In this document: one piece after another, positions 389 to 16,691 of the stretch
How positions within the stretch are numbered: position 1 is the first letter of the stretch
Layout of the letters: the number at the start of each line of letters is the position of its first letter
Origin: Escherichia coli
GTDB taxonomy: Bacteria; Pseudomonadota; Gammaproteobacteria; Enterobacterales; Enterobacteriaceae
Direction: 5' to 3' (one strand)
NCBI RefSeq assembly: GCF_048403405.1
Contig: NZ_CP183129.1
Length of the DNA stretch: 64,000 nucleotides
Program-made: the position numbers and the translations under genes
The notes under the pieces: model-generated
The model's database searches: none
Told to the model about the DNA's origin: nothing
The model's input: only the letters and a program-made list of their open reading frames with translations

Positions 389-1834
389 ATGGAACTTCGA
401 AATAAGAAATTAACCCATGACGAATTCATGACCGAGCGGCAACAGGTACTGAAAACCTGGGAAACCGGCAAGGATGTTGAAAACTTTGAAGATGGCGTTA
501 AATACCAACAAACCATTCCTGAGCATAAACGCTTCTCTCTTGTGCTGTTGAAAGCAGACAAGGAAGGTAAAACCCTTAGCCAACCGCGCGCAGGTGTGGC
601 GCTGATGGACGAACACATCGAACTACTGAAAACACTACAAGAAGAGTGCGATCTGCTGCCGAGCACTATCGATGCATATACCCGTCTGAATCGGTACGAA
701 GAAGCGGCTGTAGGGATTAAAAAATCCATCGAAGCCGGAACCTCTAAACTGAACGGTTTACCGGTCGTTAACCACGGCGTCGCAGCTTGCCGTCGCCTCA
801 CCGAAACTTTGCAAAAACCGCTACAGATCCGCCACGGCACGCCAGATGCGCGTCTGCTGGCTGAAATCTCGATGTCCAGCGGCTTTACCAGTTATGAAGG
901 CGGCGGCATTTCCTACAATATTCCGTATGCCAAGCGCGTAACGCTGGAAAAATCGATCCGCGACTGGCAGTACTGCGACCGTTTAATGGGGATGTATGAA
1001 GAACACGGGATCCGCATCAACCGCGAACCGTTTGGCCCACTAACGGGTACGCTGATCCCGCCGTTTATCTCGCACTCTATCGCGATAATCGAAGGCTTGC
1101 TGGCGCTGGAACAGGGTGTGAAATCTATCACCGTTGGTTATGGACAGGTCGGCAGCCTGACGCAGGATGTTGCGGCGATCCAGTCTCTGCGTGAACTTGC
1201 ACACGAATATTTTCAGAGCTATGGCTATACCGACTATGAATTAAGTACCGTGTTTCACCAGTGGATGGGCGGCTTTCCGGAAGACGAATCGAAAGCGTTC
1301 GCTATTATCTCCTGGGGCGCAGCCGTCGCGGGGATGTCTGGTGCCACCAAAGTCATCACCAAAAGTCCGCACGAAGCCTGGGGTATCCCGACTGCCGCTG
1401 CCAACATTCAGGGGCTGAAAGCCTCCCGCCAGATGCTCAACATGGTCAACGAGCAGAAATTCCCGCCGTGCCCTGCGGTTGAACTGGAAATTGAACTGAT
1501 TAAGAGCGAGGTTCGCGCGGTACTGAATAAAGTGTTCGAACTGGGTAATGGTGATATTGCGCGCGGTACGGTGCTGGCATTTGAAGCGGGCGTACTGGAT
1601 GTGCCGTTTGCGCCAGCCGCCTGCAACGCGGGCAAAATTCTTCCGGTCCGTGACAACACCGGCGCGATACGCGTACTGGAAGCCGGAGCCGTTCCATTGC
1701 CAAAAGATATTCTCGACCTCCACCACGATTACGTTGCGGAACGCGCACGCTTTGAAGGACGCCAACCGACATTCCAGATGGTTGTAGATGACATCAATGC
1801 TGTATCCCACAGTAAATTAATAGGAAGACCATAA
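389..1834 (+). CDS. glmE: glutamate mutase epsilon (E) subunit, coenzyme B12-dependent methylaspartate mutase
   Basis: 481 aa ORF; N-terminus MELRNKKLTHDEF...PRAGVALMDEH resembles GlmE as I recall it; followed by methylaspartase with overlapping stop/start. Confidence 0.8.
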   Translation: MELRNKKLTHDEFMTERQQVLKTWETGKDVENFEDGVKYQQTIPEHKRFSLVLLKADKEGKTLSQPRAGVALMDEHIELLKTLQEECDLLPSTIDAYTRLNRYEEAAVGIKKSIEAGTSKLNGLPVVNHGVAACRRLTETLQKPLQIRHGTPDARLLAEISMSSGFTSYEGGGISYNIPYAKRVTLEKSIRDWQYCDRLMGMYEEHGIRINREPFGPLTGTLIPPFISHSIAIIEGLLALEQGVKSITVGYGQVGSLTQDVAAIQSLRELAHEYFQSYGYTDYELSTVFHQWMGGFPEDESKAFAIISWGAAVAGMSGATKVITKSPHEAWGIPTAAANIQGLKASRQMLNMVNEQKFPPCPAVELEIELIKSEVRAVLNKVFELGNGDIARGTVLAFEAGVLDVPFAPAACNAGKILPVRDNTGAIRVLEAGAVPLPKDILDLHHDYVAERARFEGRQPTFQMVVDDINAVSHSKLIGRP

Positions 1835-3075
1835 TGAAAATAAAACAGGCTCTGTTCACCGCTGGCTACTCCTCATTCTATTTCGATGACCAGCAGGCGA
1901 TAAAAAACGGAGCGGGTCACGACGGTTTTTTTTATACCGGGGAGCCGGTAACACAGGGGTTTAACGCCGTTCGTCAGGCCGGGGAGTGCGTATCGGTACA
2001 GTTGATTCTGGAAAACGGCGCGGTCGCCGTAGGTGACTGTGCTGCCGTACAGTATTCCGGGGCAGGTGGTCGCGATCCACTGTTCCTCGCAGAGCACTTT
2101 ATTCCGTTCCTCAACGACCATATCAAGCCATTACTGGTAGGCCGCGATGTGGATGCTTTCCTGCCGAATGCCCGTTTCTTCGACAAATTGCGTATTGACG
2201 GCAACTTGCTGCATACCGCCGTGCGCTACGGATTATCACAGGCGCTGCTTGATGCTACCGCGCTGGCAACCGGCCGTCTGAAAACTGAAGTGGTCTGTGA
2301 TGAATGGCAGTTGCCACGCGTGGCGGAATCCATTCCATTATTTGGTCAGAGCGGCGACGATCGATATATCGCCGTCGATAAGATGATCCTTAAGGGCATC
2401 GACGTGCTGCCCCATGCGCTGATTAATAACGTCGAAGAGAAGCTGGGCTTTAAAGGTGAAAAACTGCGCGAATATGTCCGCTGGCTGTCGGATCGTATTC
2501 TGAGCAAGCGCACCAGCGCACGCTACCACCCTACCCTGCACATCGATGTATACGGCACTATCGGTCTGATCTTCGATATGGATCCGCTTCGCTGTGCGCA
2601 ATACATCGCCAGCCTGGAAAAAGAAGCGCAAGGCCTGCCGCTCTACATTGAAGGGCCGGTCGATGCTGGTAACAAGCCCGATCAAATTCGCCTGCTGACC
2701 GCGATTACCAAAGAGCTGACACGCCTCGGTTCCGGCGTGAAAATTGTGGCCGATGAATGGTGTAACACCTACCAGGATATTGTTGATTTCACAGATGCCG
2801 CCAGTTGCCACATGGTGCAAATCAAAACCCCGGATCTGGGCAGTATTCACAACATCGTCGATGCGGTTCTTTACTGCAACAGCCACAGCATGGAAGCGTA
2901 CCAGGGCGGCACCTGCAATGAAACTGATGTCAGTGCCCGCACCTGTGTCCACGTCGCCCTTGCCGCTCGCCCTATGCGTATGCTGGTAAAGCCAGGGATG
3001 GGCTTTGACGAAGGCCTCGATATCGTCTTCAACGAAATGAATCGTACTATCGCGCTGTTGCAGGCTAAGGATTAA
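1834..3075 (+). CDS. 3-methylaspartate ammonia-lyase (beta-methylaspartase)
   Basis: 413 aa, the expected size for methylaspartase (enolase superfamily); start ATG overlaps the glmE stop (TAATG at 1832-1836). Confidence 0.8.
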   Translation: MKIKQALFTAGYSSFYFDDQQAIKNGAGHDGFFYTGEPVTQGFNAVRQAGECVSVQLILENGAVAVGDCAAVQYSGAGGRDPLFLAEHFIPFLNDHIKPLLVGRDVDAFLPNARFFDKLRIDGNLLHTAVRYGLSQALLDATALATGRLKTEVVCDEWQLPRVAESIPLFGQSGDDRYIAVDKMILKGIDVLPHALINNVEEKLGFKGEKLREYVRWLSDRILSKRTSARYHPTLHIDVYGTIGLIFDMDPLRCAQYIASLEKEAQGLPLYIEGPVDAGNKPDQIRLLTAITKELTRLGSGVKIVADEWCNTYQDIVDFTDAASCHMVQIKTPDLGSIHNIVDAVLYCNSHSMEAYQGGTCNETDVSARTCVHVALAARPMRMLVKPGMGFDEGLDIVFNEMNRTIALLQAKD

Positions 3076-3078
3076 CAA

Positions 3079-4449
3079 ATGGCTCGTTCTTTTAAAGTCT
3101 TATCGCCAACGGCAATCCTCGGGTATGGATTCCCGGAAGAGAGCTTCCGTAAAGCGATGGCAGAATCGCCCGATCTGATCGCCGTTGATGCAGGCTCTTC
3201 CGATCCTGGCCCCCACTACCTCGGGGCGGGCAAACCGTTTACCGATCGCGCAGGGGTCAAGCGCGATCTGCGCTATATGATCACCGCAGGCGTGCAAAAT
3301 AATATACCGGTGGTGATCGGAACGGCTGGCGGTTCTGGTGCCGCACCACACCTGGAGTGGTGCCGAGAAATAATTCATGAGATTGCCCAGGAAGAGCACC
3401 TCTCGTTCTCAATGGCGCTGATCCCGGCAGACGTTGACAAAGCCATCGTCCACCAGGCGCTGGATAACGGCAAAATCACGGCGCTGGAGTTTGTCCCGCC
3501 GTTAACCCACGACGCGATTGACGAAAGTACGTATATCGTTGCGCAAATGGGCATCGAACCCTTCCAGCGGGCGCTGAAAGAAGGCGCGCAAGTGGTGCTG
3601 GGCGGGCGCGCTTACGACCCGGCCTGCTTTGCTGCGCTTCCGATCATGCAAGGCTTTGATGAAGGTCTGGCGCTGCATTGTGGGAAAATCCTTGAATGCG
3701 CGGCAATCGCCGCAACGCCCGGCTCAGGCTCTGACTGTGCGATGGGCATCATTGATGACAACGGCTTTACGCTGAAGACATTTAATCCGAAGCGTAAATT
3801 TACCGAAACGTCAGCGGCTGCACACACACTGTATGAGAAATCCGATCCCTACTTCCTGCCTGGACCTGGCGGCGTGTTGAACCTGAAAGGCTGCACATTT
3901 AAAGCGGTCAATGACAGCGAAGTGTACGTCAGCGGTTCTAAGCATGAAGAAACGCCGTATGCCCTGAAACTGGAAGGTGCGCGACGAGTGGGCTTCCGCT
4001 GTCTGACCATCGCAGGAACGCGCGACCCGATCATGATCGCCGGGATCGATAAAATCATCGATGAAGTCAAAACCAGCGTTTCGCGTAACCTGTCGCTCGA
4101 CGATGACAGCATTCGCATCAATTTCCACCTGTACGGCAAAAACGGGGTGATGGGAGACCATGAACCGATGCAAACTGCCGGGCATGAGCTGGGGATTGTC
4201 CTTGATGTAGTTGCACCGACCCAGGAAATTGCCAACAGCGTTTGCTCGCTGGTGCGCTCTACCATGCTGCACTACGGCTATGAAAACCGCATCGCTACCG
4301 CAGGTAATCTGGCGTTCCCGTTCTCCCCTTCTGATATCCAGGGCGGGCCGGTATACGAATTTTCCATATATCACCTGATTGAAGCCAACGACGCTCTGCG
4401 TTTTGATTTCCATATTGAACAGGTGACGCCAGAAGGAGTTCAGGCATGA
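3079..4449 (+). CDS. uncharacterised protein, AtuA/DUF1446-like family (function unknown)
   Basis: 456 aa ORF 3 nt after the methylaspartase stop; family assignment from memory of AtuA-like proteins, unverified. Confidence 0.55.
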   Translation: MARSFKVLSPTAILGYGFPEESFRKAMAESPDLIAVDAGSSDPGPHYLGAGKPFTDRAGVKRDLRYMITAGVQNNIPVVIGTAGGSGAAPHLEWCREIIHEIAQEEHLSFSMALIPADVDKAIVHQALDNGKITALEFVPPLTHDAIDESTYIVAQMGIEPFQRALKEGAQVVLGGRAYDPACFAALPIMQGFDEGLALHCGKILECAAIAATPGSGSDCAMGIIDDNGFTLKTFNPKRKFTETSAAAHTLYEKSDPYFLPGPGGVLNLKGCTFKAVNDSEVYVSGSKHEETPYALKLEGARRVGFRCLTIAGTRDPIMIAGIDKIIDEVKTSVSRNLSLDDDSIRINFHLYGKNGVMGDHEPMQTAGHELGIVLDVVAPTQEIANSVCSLVRSTMLHYGYENRIATAGNLAFPFSPSDIQGGPVYEFSIYHLIEANDALRFDFHIEQVTPEGVQA

Positions 4450-4763
4450 AACAGTCAATTGTCTCACTGGCGCAAGTCATTCGTTCGAAAAATGCCGGAC
4501 CTTACGAACTGGTTTTAGATATTTTATTTAAAACCAAAGAAAACTATGAGCGTGTCAAATCATCAGGGCAATTAACCCCAGAACTGATCGCGCGCTTATA
4601 TCATGTTGAACCTGACTTTATTCATCGTATTGTCTGGTTTGATCCTTCTAACGCAGTAAAAATCGTCATGCCACGAGATATTATCTCCGGGAATGTAGGT
4701 GACAATGATGTCTATGGTGCACAGCAACATGCACCTTTATTAAATATGAGTTTCGATTTGTAA
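4446..4763 (+). CDS. small uncharacterised protein, DUF4387-like partner of AtuA-like proteins
   Basis: 105 aa ORF; start ATG overlaps the upstream stop (ATGA at 4446-4449), indicating translational coupling. Confidence 0.5.
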   Translation: MKQSIVSLAQVIRSKNAGPYELVLDILFKTKENYERVKSSGQLTPELIARLYHVEPDFIHRIVWFDPSNAVKIVMPRDIISGNVGDNDVYGAQQHAPLLNMSFDL

Positions 4764-4923
4764 AAATCCGAATACTTTTAGCCAACTGACATCCCGTCAC
4801 TTATTGCAGTTCAACACTTCAGCTATTTGTAAGGTTGTAATAGCAGGTAGATGCCTGAATCTCTATTCGGGCATCTACTTCTCCTGATTCTGATTTATCG
4901 CCGTGCACCTGATGGAGGAAAAA

Positions 4924-6204
4924 ATGAAGAAAATAAGTTTAACCACGATGATTCTTTTGGCGCTGGTACTTGGAATGATTATCGGCGTAGTGCTCAATAA
5001 CACTGCTTCACCGGAAACCGAAAAACTCTATGCGCAAGAAATATCGATATTCACGACGATTTTCTTACGACTGATAAAAATGATTATCGCTCCGTTAGTG
5101 GTCTCTACCCTGGTGGTAGGTATAGCTAAAATGGGCGATGCCAAAGCCCTTGGTCGTATTTTTTCTAAAACACTCTTTTTATTTATTTGCGCCTCATTGC
5201 TGTCAATTGCCTTAGGCTTGATAACAGTAAATTTCTTCATGCCAGGCACAGGAATTAATTTTGTTGCACACGGAGCCGAAACCACCGGAGTGGTCGCGTC
5301 AGAACCCTTTACGCTAAAAGTATTTATTTCGCATGCTTTCCCCACCAGCATTGTCGATGCCATGGCGCACAATGAAATTTTGCAAATCGTGGTGTTCTCA
5401 ATTTTCCTCGGCTGTAGCCTGACGGCGATTGGCGAGAAAGGCAGCGCCATCGTTCACGCCTTAGATTCGCTGGCACATGCCATGTTAAAGCTCACTGGCT
5501 ACGTCATGCTCTTCGCTCCCCTGACCGTATTCGCTGCTATTTCAGCATTGATTGCTGAACGAGGACTGGCAGTTATGGTGAGCGCCGGGATCTTTATGGG
5601 TGAATTTTATTTCACCATGTTATTACTTTGGGTGCTGCTTATCGGTCTGGCCATCGTTTATGTTGGCCCCTGCATCAGACGCCTGACCCGCGCCCTTTCG
5701 GAACCCGCCCTGCTGGCATTTACCACATCCAGTTCTGAAGCGGCTTTTCCGGGAACGCTTGAAAAACTGGAGCAATTTGGCGTTTCCCCCAAAATTGCCA
5801 GCTTTGTCTTACCCATTGGCTACTCATTTAATCTTGTTGGATCAATGGCCTACTGCTCCTTCGCCACAGTTTTCATCGCCCAGGCCTGCAATATCCATTT
5901 ATCCATCGGTGAGCAAATCACCATGCTGTTGATCCTGATGTTGACCTCGAAAGGAATGGCTGGCGTACCACGCGCCTCAATGGTGGTTATCGCCGCCACG
6001 CTCAACCAGTTCAATATTCCGGAAGCGGGGCTGATCTTGCTGATGGGCGTTGATCCGTTCCTTGATATGGGGCGTTCCGCGACAAACGTCATGAGCAACG
6101 CAATGGGCGCTGCGATGGTGAGTCGGTGGGAAGGCGAACATTTCGGCGAGGGTTGTCGGGGTAAAGCATTAAAACCCAATGAATCGAACGTTGCTCTGCC
6201 CTGA
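4924..6204 (+). CDS. sodium:dicarboxylate symporter family transporter (glutamate/aspartate or C4/C5-dicarboxylate:cation symporter-like)
   Basis: About 426 aa, highly hydrophobic multi-helix protein; GGAGG 5 nt upstream of the ATG at 4924 (longest ORF begins at 4903). Confidence 0.75.
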   Translation: MKKISLTTMILLALVLGMIIGVVLNNTASPETEKLYAQEISIFTTIFLRLIKMIIAPLVVSTLVVGIAKMGDAKALGRIFSKTLFLFICASLLSIALGLITVNFFMPGTGINFVAHGAETTGVVASEPFTLKVFISHAFPTSIVDAMAHNEILQIVVFSIFLGCSLTAIGEKGSAIVHALDSLAHAMLKLTGYVMLFAPLTVFAAISALIAERGLAVMVSAGIFMGEFYFTMLLLWVLLIGLAIVYVGPCIRRLTRALSEPALLAFTTSSSEAAFPGTLEKLEQFGVSPKIASFVLPIGYSFNLVGSMAYCSFATVFIAQACNIHLSIGEQITMLLILMLTSKGMAGVPRASMVVIAATLNQFNIPEAGLILLMGVDPFLDMGRSATNVMSNAMGAAMVSRWEGEHFGEGCRGKALKPNESNVALP

Positions 6205-6311: not shown

Positions 6312-7964
6312 ATGTCCAAACCATTTATCTGGCAAGAACCGTTTCTACAAAATAAAGACGGTACAGAATATACATTAATTAGCGATCAACATATTACAGT
6401 AACGGAATTAGACGGCGAAGAAGTAATAAAAATCGCTCCTGAAGCATTAACGCTGCTTGCCCGGCAGGCATTTTATGAAGCCTCTTTTTTCTTACGTTCC
6501 GCTCATTTGCAACAGGTCGCCAGCATTCTTAACGATCCGCAGGCCAGTAGTAATGATAAATACGTTGCGTTGCAGTTATTACGTAATGCTGAAGTCTCAG
6601 CAAAAGGGGTATTACCCAACTGTCAGGATACCGGCACCGCAACTATTGTTGCCAGTAAAGGGCAACAGATATGGACGGGAGGTAACGACGCTGAAGCCTT
6701 AAGCAAAGGCATTTACAGTACTTTCCAGGAAAATAACCTGCGCTTTTCACAAAATGCGCCGCTGGATATGTACACCGAAGTCAATACGCAAACCAATCTC
6801 CCGGCGCAGATTGATATCAGCGCTGTCGCTGGTGATGAGTACCATTTTCTCTGTATTAATAAAGGGGGCGGCTCTGCCAATAAAGCCGCGCTTTATCAGG
6901 AAACCAAATCCTTATTGCAACCAGAAAAACTGACCGCATTTTTAATCGAAAAAATGAAATCGCTGGGCACCGCTGCCTGCCCGCCTTACCACATCGCCTT
7001 TGTCGTCGGAGGGCTTTCAGCCGATCAAACCTTAAAAGTTGCCAAGCTGGCCTCAACGAAATATTACGACAATTTGCCCACCAGCGGAAACGAGCAAGGA
7101 CAAGCATTCCGTGATATTGAGCTGGAAAAAGTATTGCTCGAGGCCAGTCAGCAATTTGGTATTGGTGCGCAATTTGGAGGTAAATATTTCGCTCATGATA
7201 TTCGCGTCATTCGTCTGCCGCGTCACGGTGGCTCCTGCCCGATAGCTATGGCGCTCTCCTGTTCTGCCGATCGCAATATCAAAGCAAAAATTAACAAGCA
7301 CGGTATCTGGCTGGAAAAACTCGAACACAATCCGGGGCAATATATTCCAGCCTCACTGCGGGAAGAAAATCACGCGCAACATGTACAACTGGATCTAAAC
7401 CGTCCGTTGCGTGACGTGATGCAGGATCTCGCCAGATTACCGGTAGGCACCCGCGTGTCGTTAAGTGGTCCCATCGTAGTGGCACGCGATATCGCCCACG
7501 CCAAAATAAAAGCGCGGCTGGATAACGCCGAACCGATGCCGGATTACCTGAAGCATCATATTGTCTATTACGCTGGCCCGGCGAAAACACCGGAGAACAT
7601 GGCCTGCGGTTCACTGGGTCCAACCACGGGCGGTCGAATGGACGGTTATGTCGATACCTTCCAGGCGGCTGGCGGCAGTCTGGTGATGTTATCGAAAGGT
7701 AACCGCAGCCAGCAGGTCACCGATGCCTGTCACAAACATGGTGGCTTCAATCTGGGTAGTATTGGCGGTGCAGCTGCGTTACTGGCGCAAGAATATGTCA
7801 AAAGTCTGCGTTGCCTGGAATACCCGGAGCTGGGTATGGAAGCGGTGTGGATGATGGAAGTGGAAAATCTGCCCGCATTCATCCTGGTAGATGATAAAGG
7901 CAATAATTTCTTTAGTCAGTTTGAGCAGCAACACCGCTGCGCCAGTTGCCCTGCGGGACATTAA
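6312..7964 (+). CDS. fumD: class I fumarate hydratase family protein, probable mesaconase/fumarase (FumD-like)
   Basis: 550 aa, FumA/FumB-like length; C-terminal Cys-rich tail; located in the methylaspartate operon. Confidence 0.75.
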
Positions 7965-7973
7965 GGAAAATGA

Positions 7974-8576
7974 ATGGAAGCGCGAATTTCAACTGAACGG
8001 CATGTGCAGCGCCAGCAGAAATTGAAGGAACAGGTCGATACGCGCGTCGCGGCGGCGATAGAGAAAAAAGGGATTTTGATTGTTTTCACCGGCAATGGCA
8101 AAGGGAAATCCACTGCCGCGTTTGGTACTGTGACGCGCGCGGTGGGTCATGGCAAAACGGTGGGGGTTGCGCAGTACATCAAGGGGCAATGGGACAACGG
8201 CGAATACAACCTTCTCCAGCCGCTGGGGGTTGAGTTTCATATTATGGGAACCGGTTTTACCTGGGAGACACAGAACCGGCAAGCGGATATCGACGCGGCG
8301 AAAGAGGTCTGGTCGGAAAGCAAACGGATGCTGGCTGACAAGCGTTACGACTTAGTGGTGCTTGATGAGCTGACCTATATGCTGGCTTACCATTATCTGG
8401 ACACCGAAGAAGTGATCGCTTCTCTGCAAAACCGCCCGGCACAACAAAGTGTCATTGTCACCGGACGCGGTTGCCACAGTCAGATATTAAAAATGGCGGA
8501 TACGGTCAGCGAAATCCGCCCCGTCAAACATGCTTTTGATAACGGCATTCAGGCGCAGCCGGGTATCGACTGGTAA
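7974..8576 (+). CDS. corrinoid (cob(I)alamin) adenosyltransferase, BtuR/CobO-family paralog
   Basis: 200 aa with P-loop-like FTGNGKGKSTAAFG motif; close resemblance to E. coli BtuR (about 196 aa) as recalled. Confidence 0.8.
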   Translation: MEARISTERHVQRQQKLKEQVDTRVAAAIEKKGILIVFTGNGKGKSTAAFGTVTRAVGHGKTVGVAQYIKGQWDNGEYNLLQPLGVEFHIMGTGFTWETQNRQADIDAAKEVWSESKRMLADKRYDLVVLDELTYMLAYHYLDTEEVIASLQNRPAQQSVIVTGRGCHSQILKMADTVSEIRPVKHAFDNGIQAQPGIDW

Positions 8577-8609
8577 TAACTGCGCCTGGCATCCCGCCAG
8601 GCGCAGGTT

Positions 8610-9515
8610 TTACATCTCCTGCGGTACGACCGATTTCGCCAGCAACCATTCACGAAATTGCTGCAAGTGCGGCGAGTCAGACTTCTCTTCCTGCCACGTC
8701 ATAATAAAACGATTACCGGTACGAATAGGCACATCACAGGGAATCACCATATCGCCACTATCCAAATCATGTTGAATAGCGAACCGTGGTAACAGCGCCA
8801 CGCCGAGATTAGAGCGCACGGCGGCAATCAGCATTGAAAGCAAATCGAAACGTGGTCCGTTATTGACCAGCGGACTGCTAACGCCAGATAAAGCAAACCA
8901 CTCTTCCCAGCCAGTAATACGGGTGCTTTGATGCAGAAGTGGTAACTCAGTAAGCAGTTCTGCCACTGACAGTTTTTGATCGGACATTGCAAGCAAACTG
9001 CCGCTGCATACCGGCAAAATCTCCTCATCAAAGAGATATTCTACTTCCGCCCAGGGCGCGCAAAAATTTTCGCGCATAATGACAGCATCGTACTCCCGAT
9101 TAAGAAAATCGCCGTTATTAGCTAAAGAATGAATATTAACAATAATATCGGGATGTAACTTTGTGAATTCATGTAAATTTGGGATTAACCAGTGGGTACT
9201 AAAAGTAGGATTAACGGCAAGTTCAATAACCTGAACCGTAGGCTGCCAGGTCATAATGGTATTGGTATCGCGTTCCAGCTTATTTAATGTTTCTTTTACT
9301 ATCCCCAGGTAATACTTCCCTGCATCATTAAGAAAAATACGTTTTTTAGAGTGTGAAAATAACGGAGTATGTAAAAATTCCTCCAGCGCACTCACTTGTC
9401 TGAATACAGCACTTTGGGTTAACGCTAACTCCTCTGCCGCTCTGGTATAACTTTCATGACGTGCGACGACCTCAAAAGTCACCAGCAGCTCCGTTTTAGG
9501 TATTTTTCCTCGCAT
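8610..9515 (-). CDS. LysR-family transcriptional regulator
   Basis: 301 aa; N-terminal helix-turn-helix (LVTFEVVARHESYTRAAEELALTQSAVFRQVSALE) plus a substrate-binding-domain-sized C-terminus. Confidence 0.85.
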   Translation of the reverse strand: MRGKIPKTELLVTFEVVARHESYTRAAEELALTQSAVFRQVSALEEFLHTPLFSHSKKRIFLNDAGKYYLGIVKETLNKLERDTNTIMTWQPTVQVIELAVNPTFSTHWLIPNLHEFTKLHPDIIVNIHSLANNGDFLNREYDAVIMRENFCAPWAEVEYLFDEEILPVCSGSLLAMSDQKLSVAELLTELPLLHQSTRITGWEEWFALSGVSSPLVNNGPRFDLLSMLIAAVRSNLGVALLPRFAIQHDLDSGDMVIPCDVPIRTGNRFIMTWQEEKSDSPHLQQFREWLLAKSVVPQEM

Positions 9516-16506: not shown

Positions 16507-16691
16507 GCATTTCTTTTGTAGGCCGGATAAGGCATTCACGCCGCATCCGGCGCTGTTTGCCTGATGCGACGCTTGCGCGTCTTATCAGGCCTACGATTTC
16601 TGCATTTCTTTTGTAGGCCGGATAAGGCGTTCACGCCGCATCCGGCACTGGTTGCCTGATGCGACGCTTGTGCGTCTTATCAGGCCTGGGT
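16507..16691. repeat. two tandem REP/BIME-type palindromic units (about 95 bp each) between sucA and sdhB
   Basis: Near-identical direct copies beginning GCATTTCTTTTGTAGGCCGGATAAGGC...GCCTGATGCGACGCTTG.GCGTCTTATCAGGCCT at 16507 and 16602. Confidence 0.75.

Follow-up and report, generated by a model that had tools for sequence, protein, structure and literature searches.

A gene pair of the Escherichia coli methylaspartate operon very probably encodes the citramalate lyase CmlAB

How do enterobacteria dispose of the citramalate that arises in the methylaspartate pathway? The mesaconase FumD makes (S)-citramalate, as described in the enzymology of Kronen & Berg 2015 (PMC4682846); that study showed that the compound is not cleaved by citrate lyase, isocitrate lyase or methylisocitrate lyase, called its fate unclear, and also noted a DUF1446 gene downstream of mal that was often mislabelled as methylaspartase. 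We pursued the question in a stretch of 64,000 nucleotides from Escherichia coli (contig NZ_CP183129.1; the whole stretch is called the window below), where two adjacent genes, cmlA and cmlB, lie within the methylaspartate operon. RefSeq names their products 'acyclic terpene utilization AtuA family protein' and 'DUF4387 domain-containing protein'. Our analysis makes it very probable that positions 3079-4763 encode the large and small subunits of a heteromeric citramalate lyase, CmlAB, which completes the methylaspartate route encoded by this operon. Function and structure of the enzyme have already been established by others and became public in October 2025; what the locus presents is an annotation gap, not a discovery.

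Identity of the gene pair

The identification is carried by a search against PDB sequences, in which CmlA aligns over its full length with chain A of entries 9ERQ and 9EVF (E 8.8e-292, 420/456 residues identical, 92%) and CmlB likewise with chain B (E 5.2e-57, 88/104, 85%). In both entries the chains bear names given by the depositors, 'Citramalate lyase, subunit A (cmlA)' for chain A and 'subunit B (cmlB)' for chain B. The entry titles read 'Citramalate lyase - AMPPNP - citramalate complex' (9ERQ, released 2025-10-22; AMPPNP, adenylyl imidodiphosphate) and 'Citramalate lyase - ADP - pyruvate complex' (9EVF, released 2025-10-08; ADP, adenosine diphosphate). The crystallised enzyme is an ortholog from another genus, separated from the E. 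coli pair by 36 substitutions in CmlA and 16 in CmlB; its chain A is identical at 456/456 positions to a gene of Klebsiella michiganensis DSM 25444 (L012). With so close an ortholog deposited under these names and in complex with ligands, the view of the pair as uncharacterised, taken in a first-pass annotation of this DNA, is outdated.

The action of the enzyme in cells is described in a preprint (bioRxiv 10.64898/2026.01.16.699985) that uses cmlAB from the I. Berg laboratory, with Raoultella planticola given as its origin. E. coli carrying these genes converts mesaconate-derived citramalate to pyruvate and acetate. Furthermore, an E. coli strain auxotrophic for acetyl-coenzyme A (acetyl-CoA) grows on mesaconate via FumA and Cml, growth is abolished by curing the cmlAB plasmid, and, when unlabelled mesaconate is given with a 13C-labelled co-substrate, mesaconate carbon reaches acetyl-CoA-derived leucine. 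Our literature search on CmlAB and citramalate lyase returned this user preprint and the 2015 paper, and no primary enzyme paper. The earlier guess that the pair processes citramalate is thus borne out by ortholog identity and by lyase use in vivo. Judged by sequence, E. coli CmlAB should have the same activity as the crystallised ortholog, and the pair appears as a regular member of the CmlAB family in every feature of sequence and context that we compared.

A different role, also raised in the first-pass annotation, is that of an accessory or maturation factor of glutamate mutase or methylaspartase, or of an enzyme acting on methylaspartate or mesaconate. The position right after mal would suit such a role, and many database entries call CmlA homologs '3-methylaspartate ammonia-lyase'. 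However, neither CmlA nor CmlB has sequence similarity to Mal, GlmE or GlmL, and Pfam finds AtuA alone; the ligands in the crystals are citramalate and pyruvate; the pair works in E. coli strains engineered with just FumA and Cml; and a Holophagaceae cluster described below keeps cmlAB and mesAB with no glm or mal gene in its flanks. These guesses find no support, and we regard a role of this kind as extremely improbable. The related candidate that CmlA is a methylaspartase paralog was rejected, its only Pfam family being AtuA and its BLASTP comparison with Mal giving E 1.4. The methylaspartase label on CmlA homologs is evidently a propagated misannotation, as was remarked in PMC4682846; NCBI records P0002, P0059 and P0073 carry it.

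Membership in the two families named in the first-pass annotation was confirmed by Pfam searches. CmlA matches AtuA (PF07287) with an independent E-value (i-E) of 5e-19 and a score of 68.8, residues 63-393 aligning with model positions 61-396 of 437, and CmlB matches DUF4387 (PF14330) with i-E 2.9e-39 over model positions 2-97 of 98; the NCBIfam models gave no match for either protein. CmlA fits its model only moderately and represents a divergent subfamily of AtuA/DUF1446, the pair as a whole forming a divergent branch of AtuA and DUF4387; 6593 homologs were found at E<=1e-5. Strong purifying selection acts on E. coli cmlAB, since the ratio of nonsynonymous to synonymous substitution rates (dN/dS), in comparison with other Enterobacteriaceae, lies at 0.03-0.05 in cmlA and at 0.05-0.07 in cmlB. 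Both open reading frames (ORFs) are genuine genes, not chance ORFs.

Could the E. coli copy nevertheless be cryptic or diverged, inactive or acting on another substrate, in contrast to its ortholog in Klebsiella/Raoultella, a citramalate lyase? Of 5426 complete E. coli genomes, 1125 contain the 1685-bp region of the pair with 95-100% identity (many RefSeq genomes with 100%). That only about 21% carry it would fit this idea, as would the lack of citramalate lyase activity in extracts of E. coli ATCC 700728, where the cluster was unexpressed under the conditions tried (PMC4682846). Those extracts, however, came from cells that were not expressing the cluster. The identity of 92% and 85% extends over the full length of both proteins, dN/dS lies at 0.03-0.07 and operon architecture is the same across Enterobacteriaceae. 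CmlA also keeps every residue that is invariant in an alignment of 25 CmlA orthologs, which follows because that alignment takes the window protein as its reference. A cryptic or diverged copy is therefore, in our judgement, very unlikely.

Altogether, CmlAB closes the gap left in 2015 concerning the enterobacterial disposal of citramalate; the pathway occurs in many opportunistic pathogens and in roughly one in five complete E. coli genomes. The practical result is a confident re-annotation of the two genes as cmlA (3079-4449) and cmlB (4446-4763), for which RefSeq, Pfam and NCBIfam still use generic names.

The operon and its relatives

The operon runs in the order glmS-glmL-glmE-mal-cmlA-cmlB-transporter-fumD-cobO, faces a convergent LysR gene and adjoins sucABCD on the E. 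coli chromosome (Table 1). In the route that these genes encode, GlmSE with GlmL converts glutamate to 3-methylaspartate, Mal turns this into mesaconate and FumD forms (S)-citramalate, which CmlAB very probably splits into pyruvate and acetate. Both ORFs lie at the coordinates first given for them, and the flanking genes are as originally described, with glmE and mal upstream and the transporter and the fumD mesaconase downstream. Co-expression of the pair with the pathway, called almost certain at that stage, is likely in view of the 3-nucleotide (nt) gap behind mal, the ATGA shared by the cmlA stop and the cmlB start, and the absence of a strong terminator before 8580-8606. The overlap also suggests translational coupling.

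Table 1. Features of the methylaspartate operon in the window
Feature	Position	Strand	Remarks
glmE, methylaspartate (glutamate) mutase subunit E	389-1834	+	NCBIfam TIGR01503 E 3e-260
mal, methylaspartate ammonia-lyase	1834-3075	+	directly 5' of cmlA; TAA stop 3073-3075; NCBIfam TIGR01502 E 2e-163; PDB 1KKO E 4e-270
Shine-Dalgarno-like AAGGA for cmlA	3067-3071	+	read from sequence; 7 nt before ATG, within last mal codons
cmlA, very probable citramalate lyase large subunit, Pfam AtuA/DUF1446 family	3079-4449	+	456 amino acids (aa); ATG start, 3 nt past mal stop
Shine-Dalgarno-like GAAGGAG for cmlB	4432-4438	+	read from sequence; 7 nt before ATG, within cmlA 3' end
cmlB, very probable citramalate lyase small subunit, Pfam DUF4387	4446-4763	+	105 aa; ATG start; ATGA at 4446-4449 shared with cmlA stop
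Hairpin in cmlB-transporter gap, 15-bp stem, 4-nt loop	4846-4879	+	RNA fold of 4764-4925: -41.3 kcal/mol, z -2.45
Dicarboxylate/amino acid:cation symporter, DctA/GltP type	4903-6204	+	RefSeq start 4924
fumD, class I fumarase/mesaconase	6312-7964	+	NCBIfam NF011921 score 1284
cobO, cob(I)yrinic acid a,c-diamide adenosyltransferase	7974-8576	+	final operon gene
Terminator-like hairpin, 11 pairs	8580-8606	+	strongest in region
LysR-family regulator	8610-9515	-	convergent; conserved with enterobacterial cluster

The terminator-like hairpin behind cobO is the probable end of the operon, and no comparably strong terminator was found between mal, cmlAB and the downstream genes up to that point. The hairpin within the 140 nt that separate cmlB from the transporter gene is followed by a U-rich but interrupted tail with no clean U-run. 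It is possibly an element of RNA stability, attenuation or partial termination that sets separate levels for the enzyme genes and for the transporter, fumD and cobO genes. Elsewhere in the window, two tandem matches to Rfam naRNA4 (RF02564; repetitive extragenic palindrome, REP, type) at 16521-16591 and 16616-16686 are the sole Rfam matches at the gathering threshold.

A survey of gene neighbourhoods, proposed in the first-pass annotation and now carried out, covered 80 species-level loci with CmlA relatives of 60-99% identity, in which pathway genes were located by tblastn. The loci come from Enterobacterales, Betaproteobacteria, Riflebacteria/Ozemobacteria, Spirochaetes, Lentisphaerae, Myxococcota, Acidobacteria and others. 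Linkage to the pathway is close: mal lies directly upstream of cmlA at 75 of 77 evaluable loci, cmlB directly downstream at 76 of 77, and the complete glmS-glmL-glmE-mal set is present at 60 of 64. The architecture of the operon is identical across Enterobacteriaceae. At one locus, from Escherichia whittamii (L036, 11368-14700), fumD directly follows cmlB, and the transporter gene and cobO of the E. coli cluster were not detected. Another (L008, JAIJJM010000101.1, 7294 bp), binned as 'MAG: Collinsella sp.', holds a cluster whose proteins are 99-100% identical to those of E. coli; it is most likely a mis-binned Escherichia contig, not an actinobacterial copy.

Which enzyme takes this place where CmlAB is missing? 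In four of four clostridial mal clusters (C. tetani, C. scatologenes, Oceanirhabdus and Hathewaya) the order is GntR-glmS-glmL-glmE-mal-mesA-mesB-citD-citE-citF, mostly followed by citC, citX and citG, and none of these four clusters contains an AtuA or DUF4387 gene. Conversely, tblastn with cit proteins found no homolog of citC, citD, citE, citF, citX or citG at the 80 CmlA loci or in the window. A CitDEF-type identity of the pair itself was also rejected, as BLASTP of CmlA and CmlB against E. coli CitC, CitD, CitE, CitF, CitX and CitG returned nothing below E 1. The non-enterobacterial CmlAB clusters have the GntR-glmSLE-mal front end in common with the clostridial ones. From this distribution it follows that one or the other system fills the lyase slot, which indicates non-orthologous displacement; CmlAB would stand in for the acyl-carrier-protein-dependent citramalate lyase of CitDEF type together with its three maturation enzymes. 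The earlier statement that no citramalate lyase is visible in the window thus holds just for the CitDEF type, of which there are no homologs, and fails as a whole, because the pair is itself the lyase.

Two loci depart from the common neighbourhood. A Holophagaceae locus (L086:9633-13764) reads cmlA-cmlB-(P-loop)-mesA-mesB, with no glm or mal gene within its flanks; this ties the pair to the mesaconase step, not to the mutase, and the cluster looks like a stand-alone mesaconate/citramalate module. In a metagenome-assembled genome of Accumulibacter (L057:10001-11679), cmlAB stands alone, with malQ on one side and rpoC on the other.

That CmlA and CmlB form a functional heteromer is supported by their co-crystallisation, by the 4-nt ATGA overlap of their genes, which recurs at 57 of 76 loci, and by single-chain proteins in which AtuA carries a C-terminal DUF4387 domain. 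These fusions measure 530-735 aa (P0227 and P0258; also P0226, P0230, P0257 and P0269) and are 37-40% identical to CmlA across its length; P0227 and P0258, the two whose context we examined, lie in fungal genomic settings. At L088:8001-10630 the fusion gene has an acetate kinase gene about 7 kb upstream, which is a single case but a curious one, as acetyl phosphate is a possible product of the lyase (see below).

Most loci outside Enterobacteriaceae contain a further ORF of about 313-323 aa after cmlB, nearly always within about 0-120 nt (L004:11677-12618, L006:11712-12665, L002:11698-12654 and about 30 further loci). Only a Walker A motif (residues ~40-65) could be recognised in this protein, which showed no significant Pfam, NCBIfam or PDB family. 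It is the P-loop ORF kept beside cmlAB and mesAB in the Holophagaceae cluster that has no glm or mal, and it is absent from enterobacterial clusters and from the window. The P-loop protein may belong to the lyase system as a third, accessory part.

How citramalate might be cleaved

The cleavage of free citramalate needs a carbanion alpha to a carboxylate, which the classical citramalate lyase sidesteps by means of a thioester on its acyl carrier protein (ACP). How, then, might CmlAB proceed? In the two crystal structures AMPPNP is paired with the substrate and ADP with the product. This pairing suggests phosphoryl transfer, and we infer that the nucleotide sits in the active site and is chemically involved. 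In the mechanism that we propose, adenosine triphosphate (ATP) would phosphorylate the carboxylate (C4) of the carboxymethyl arm of citramalate, and the resulting acyl phosphate would make cleavage of the C2-C3 bond feasible, to give pyruvate and the enolate of acetyl phosphate. The phosphoryl group would then either return to ADP, with release of free acetate and with ATP acting catalytically, or leave as acetyl phosphate. The nucleotide would take over the role that the acetyl-thioester prosthetic group has in CitDEF. Return to ADP would result in net conversion of citramalate to pyruvate and acetate, which fits the description in the preprint and the benefit of Acs up-regulation. If acetyl phosphate is set free instead, the methylaspartate route of enterobacteria would supply acetate kinase directly. 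Linkage to ack, sought as support for this product, was uninformative, with one unrelated match about 9 kb away at 1 of the 80 loci.

The alignment of CmlA orthologs and its extension to relatives are consistent with this proposal. Several loops are invariant from CmlA to the fungal fusions: D37-x-G-S-x-D42-x-G-P, G84-G-x-G87...H91, G176-R-x-Y-D-P181, H200-x-G-K-I-x-E-C207 and K297-x-E299. K254 likewise belongs to the core conserved across the family. K52, R239, R404, D219 and C220 are invariant in CmlA and absent from the fused relatives, and the three basic residues together with the D219-C220 loop may read the substrate. CmlB has the invariant motifs RSKN and GDxDxYGAQQHxP, which would be unusual for a purely structural subunit, and probably completes the active site. 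Loops, CmlA-specific residues and CmlB motifs may together lend the phosphoryl mechanism weak support.

The same enzyme and net reaction could also be explained with a nucleotide that is only structural or allosteric, the bond being broken, in the manner of isocitrate lyase, by a direct, metal-assisted retro-aldol reaction through an aci-carboxylate; a conserved Cys or His would serve as the general acid (the candidates include H200, K203, E206 and C207). Isocitrate lyase demonstrates that carboxylate alpha-carbanion chemistry can work without activation, and no recognisable kinase or ATP-grasp homology was found in CmlAB, although the N-terminal alpha/beta domain may be a candidate for an amino-acid-kinase fold, as in NAGK, aspartokinase or UMP kinase, that could phosphorylate a carboxylate. 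The preprint, moreover, describes citramalate as cleaved directly into pyruvate and acetate, with no mention of a need for ATP. Yet AMPPNP found with the substrate and ADP with the product is the typical way in which phosphoryl transfer is trapped, and the family-wide Gly/Asp-rich loops DxGSxDxGP, GGxG..H and GGRxYDP are consistent with phosphate handling. We therefore consider a purely structural or allosteric nucleotide unlikely, if still a serious candidate.

The phosphoryl mechanism can be extended, with some hesitation, to the whole family. The module of AtuA and DUF4387 could be a general ATP-using hydroxy-acid:acetate lyase in which a free carboxymethyl arm is activated as an acyl phosphate so that a C-C bond can be broken, and which has no solved structural relative; this is a tentative proposal, to which we give rather less than even weight. 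Among solved structures, we found no other relative of the CmlAB fold. Were the proposal true, thousands of proteins labelled 'AtuA family' or DUF4387 would gain a chemistry, among them the AtuA that acts in terpene catabolism and the fusions from fungi, and the P-loop protein of about 315 aa would be a third component of the system.

Comparison with known lyases

CmlAB shares its net reaction and its slot in the methylaspartate cluster with the classical citramalate lyase, CitDEF with CitC, CitX and CitG (EC 4.1.3.22 / 4.1.3.6; Clostridium tetanomorphum type), to which it has no relationship in sequence or fold. CitDEF relies on an acyl carrier protein, a phosphoribosyl-dephospho-CoA prosthetic group and acetyl-thioester exchange, whereas CmlAB consists of two proteins and a bound adenine nucleotide. 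It is a compact lyase independent of CoA and ACP and is already in use in synthetic pathways.

ATP-citrate lyase offers a mechanistic analogy only. Its ATP-coupled C-C cleavage of a hydroxy-polycarboxylate, with an acyl-phosphate intermediate, is a precedent for the mechanism that we suggest for CmlAB. It requires CoA, proceeds through citryl-CoA, consumes ATP stoichiometrically and is built from ATP-grasp/succinyl-CoA-synthetase-like domains, of which none is detectable in CmlAB.

The third comparison is with AtuA of terpene catabolism, which belongs to the same Pfam family as CmlA (PF07287) and takes part in a reaction in which a tertiary hydroxy acid loses its carboxymethyl arm as acetate (PMC4847356). 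The Thauera AtuA has 615 aa (PMC4847356), a length that would be consistent with an AtuA-DUF4387 fusion. The systems differ in that the substrate of CmlA is a free dicarboxylate and not a CoA ester, and in that DUF4387 is a separate subunit in CmlAB. As both formally split a tertiary hydroxy acid into a ketone and acetate, the chemistry of the AtuA family appears coherent, and CmlAB provides the first biochemical anchor for the large AtuA and DUF4387 families.

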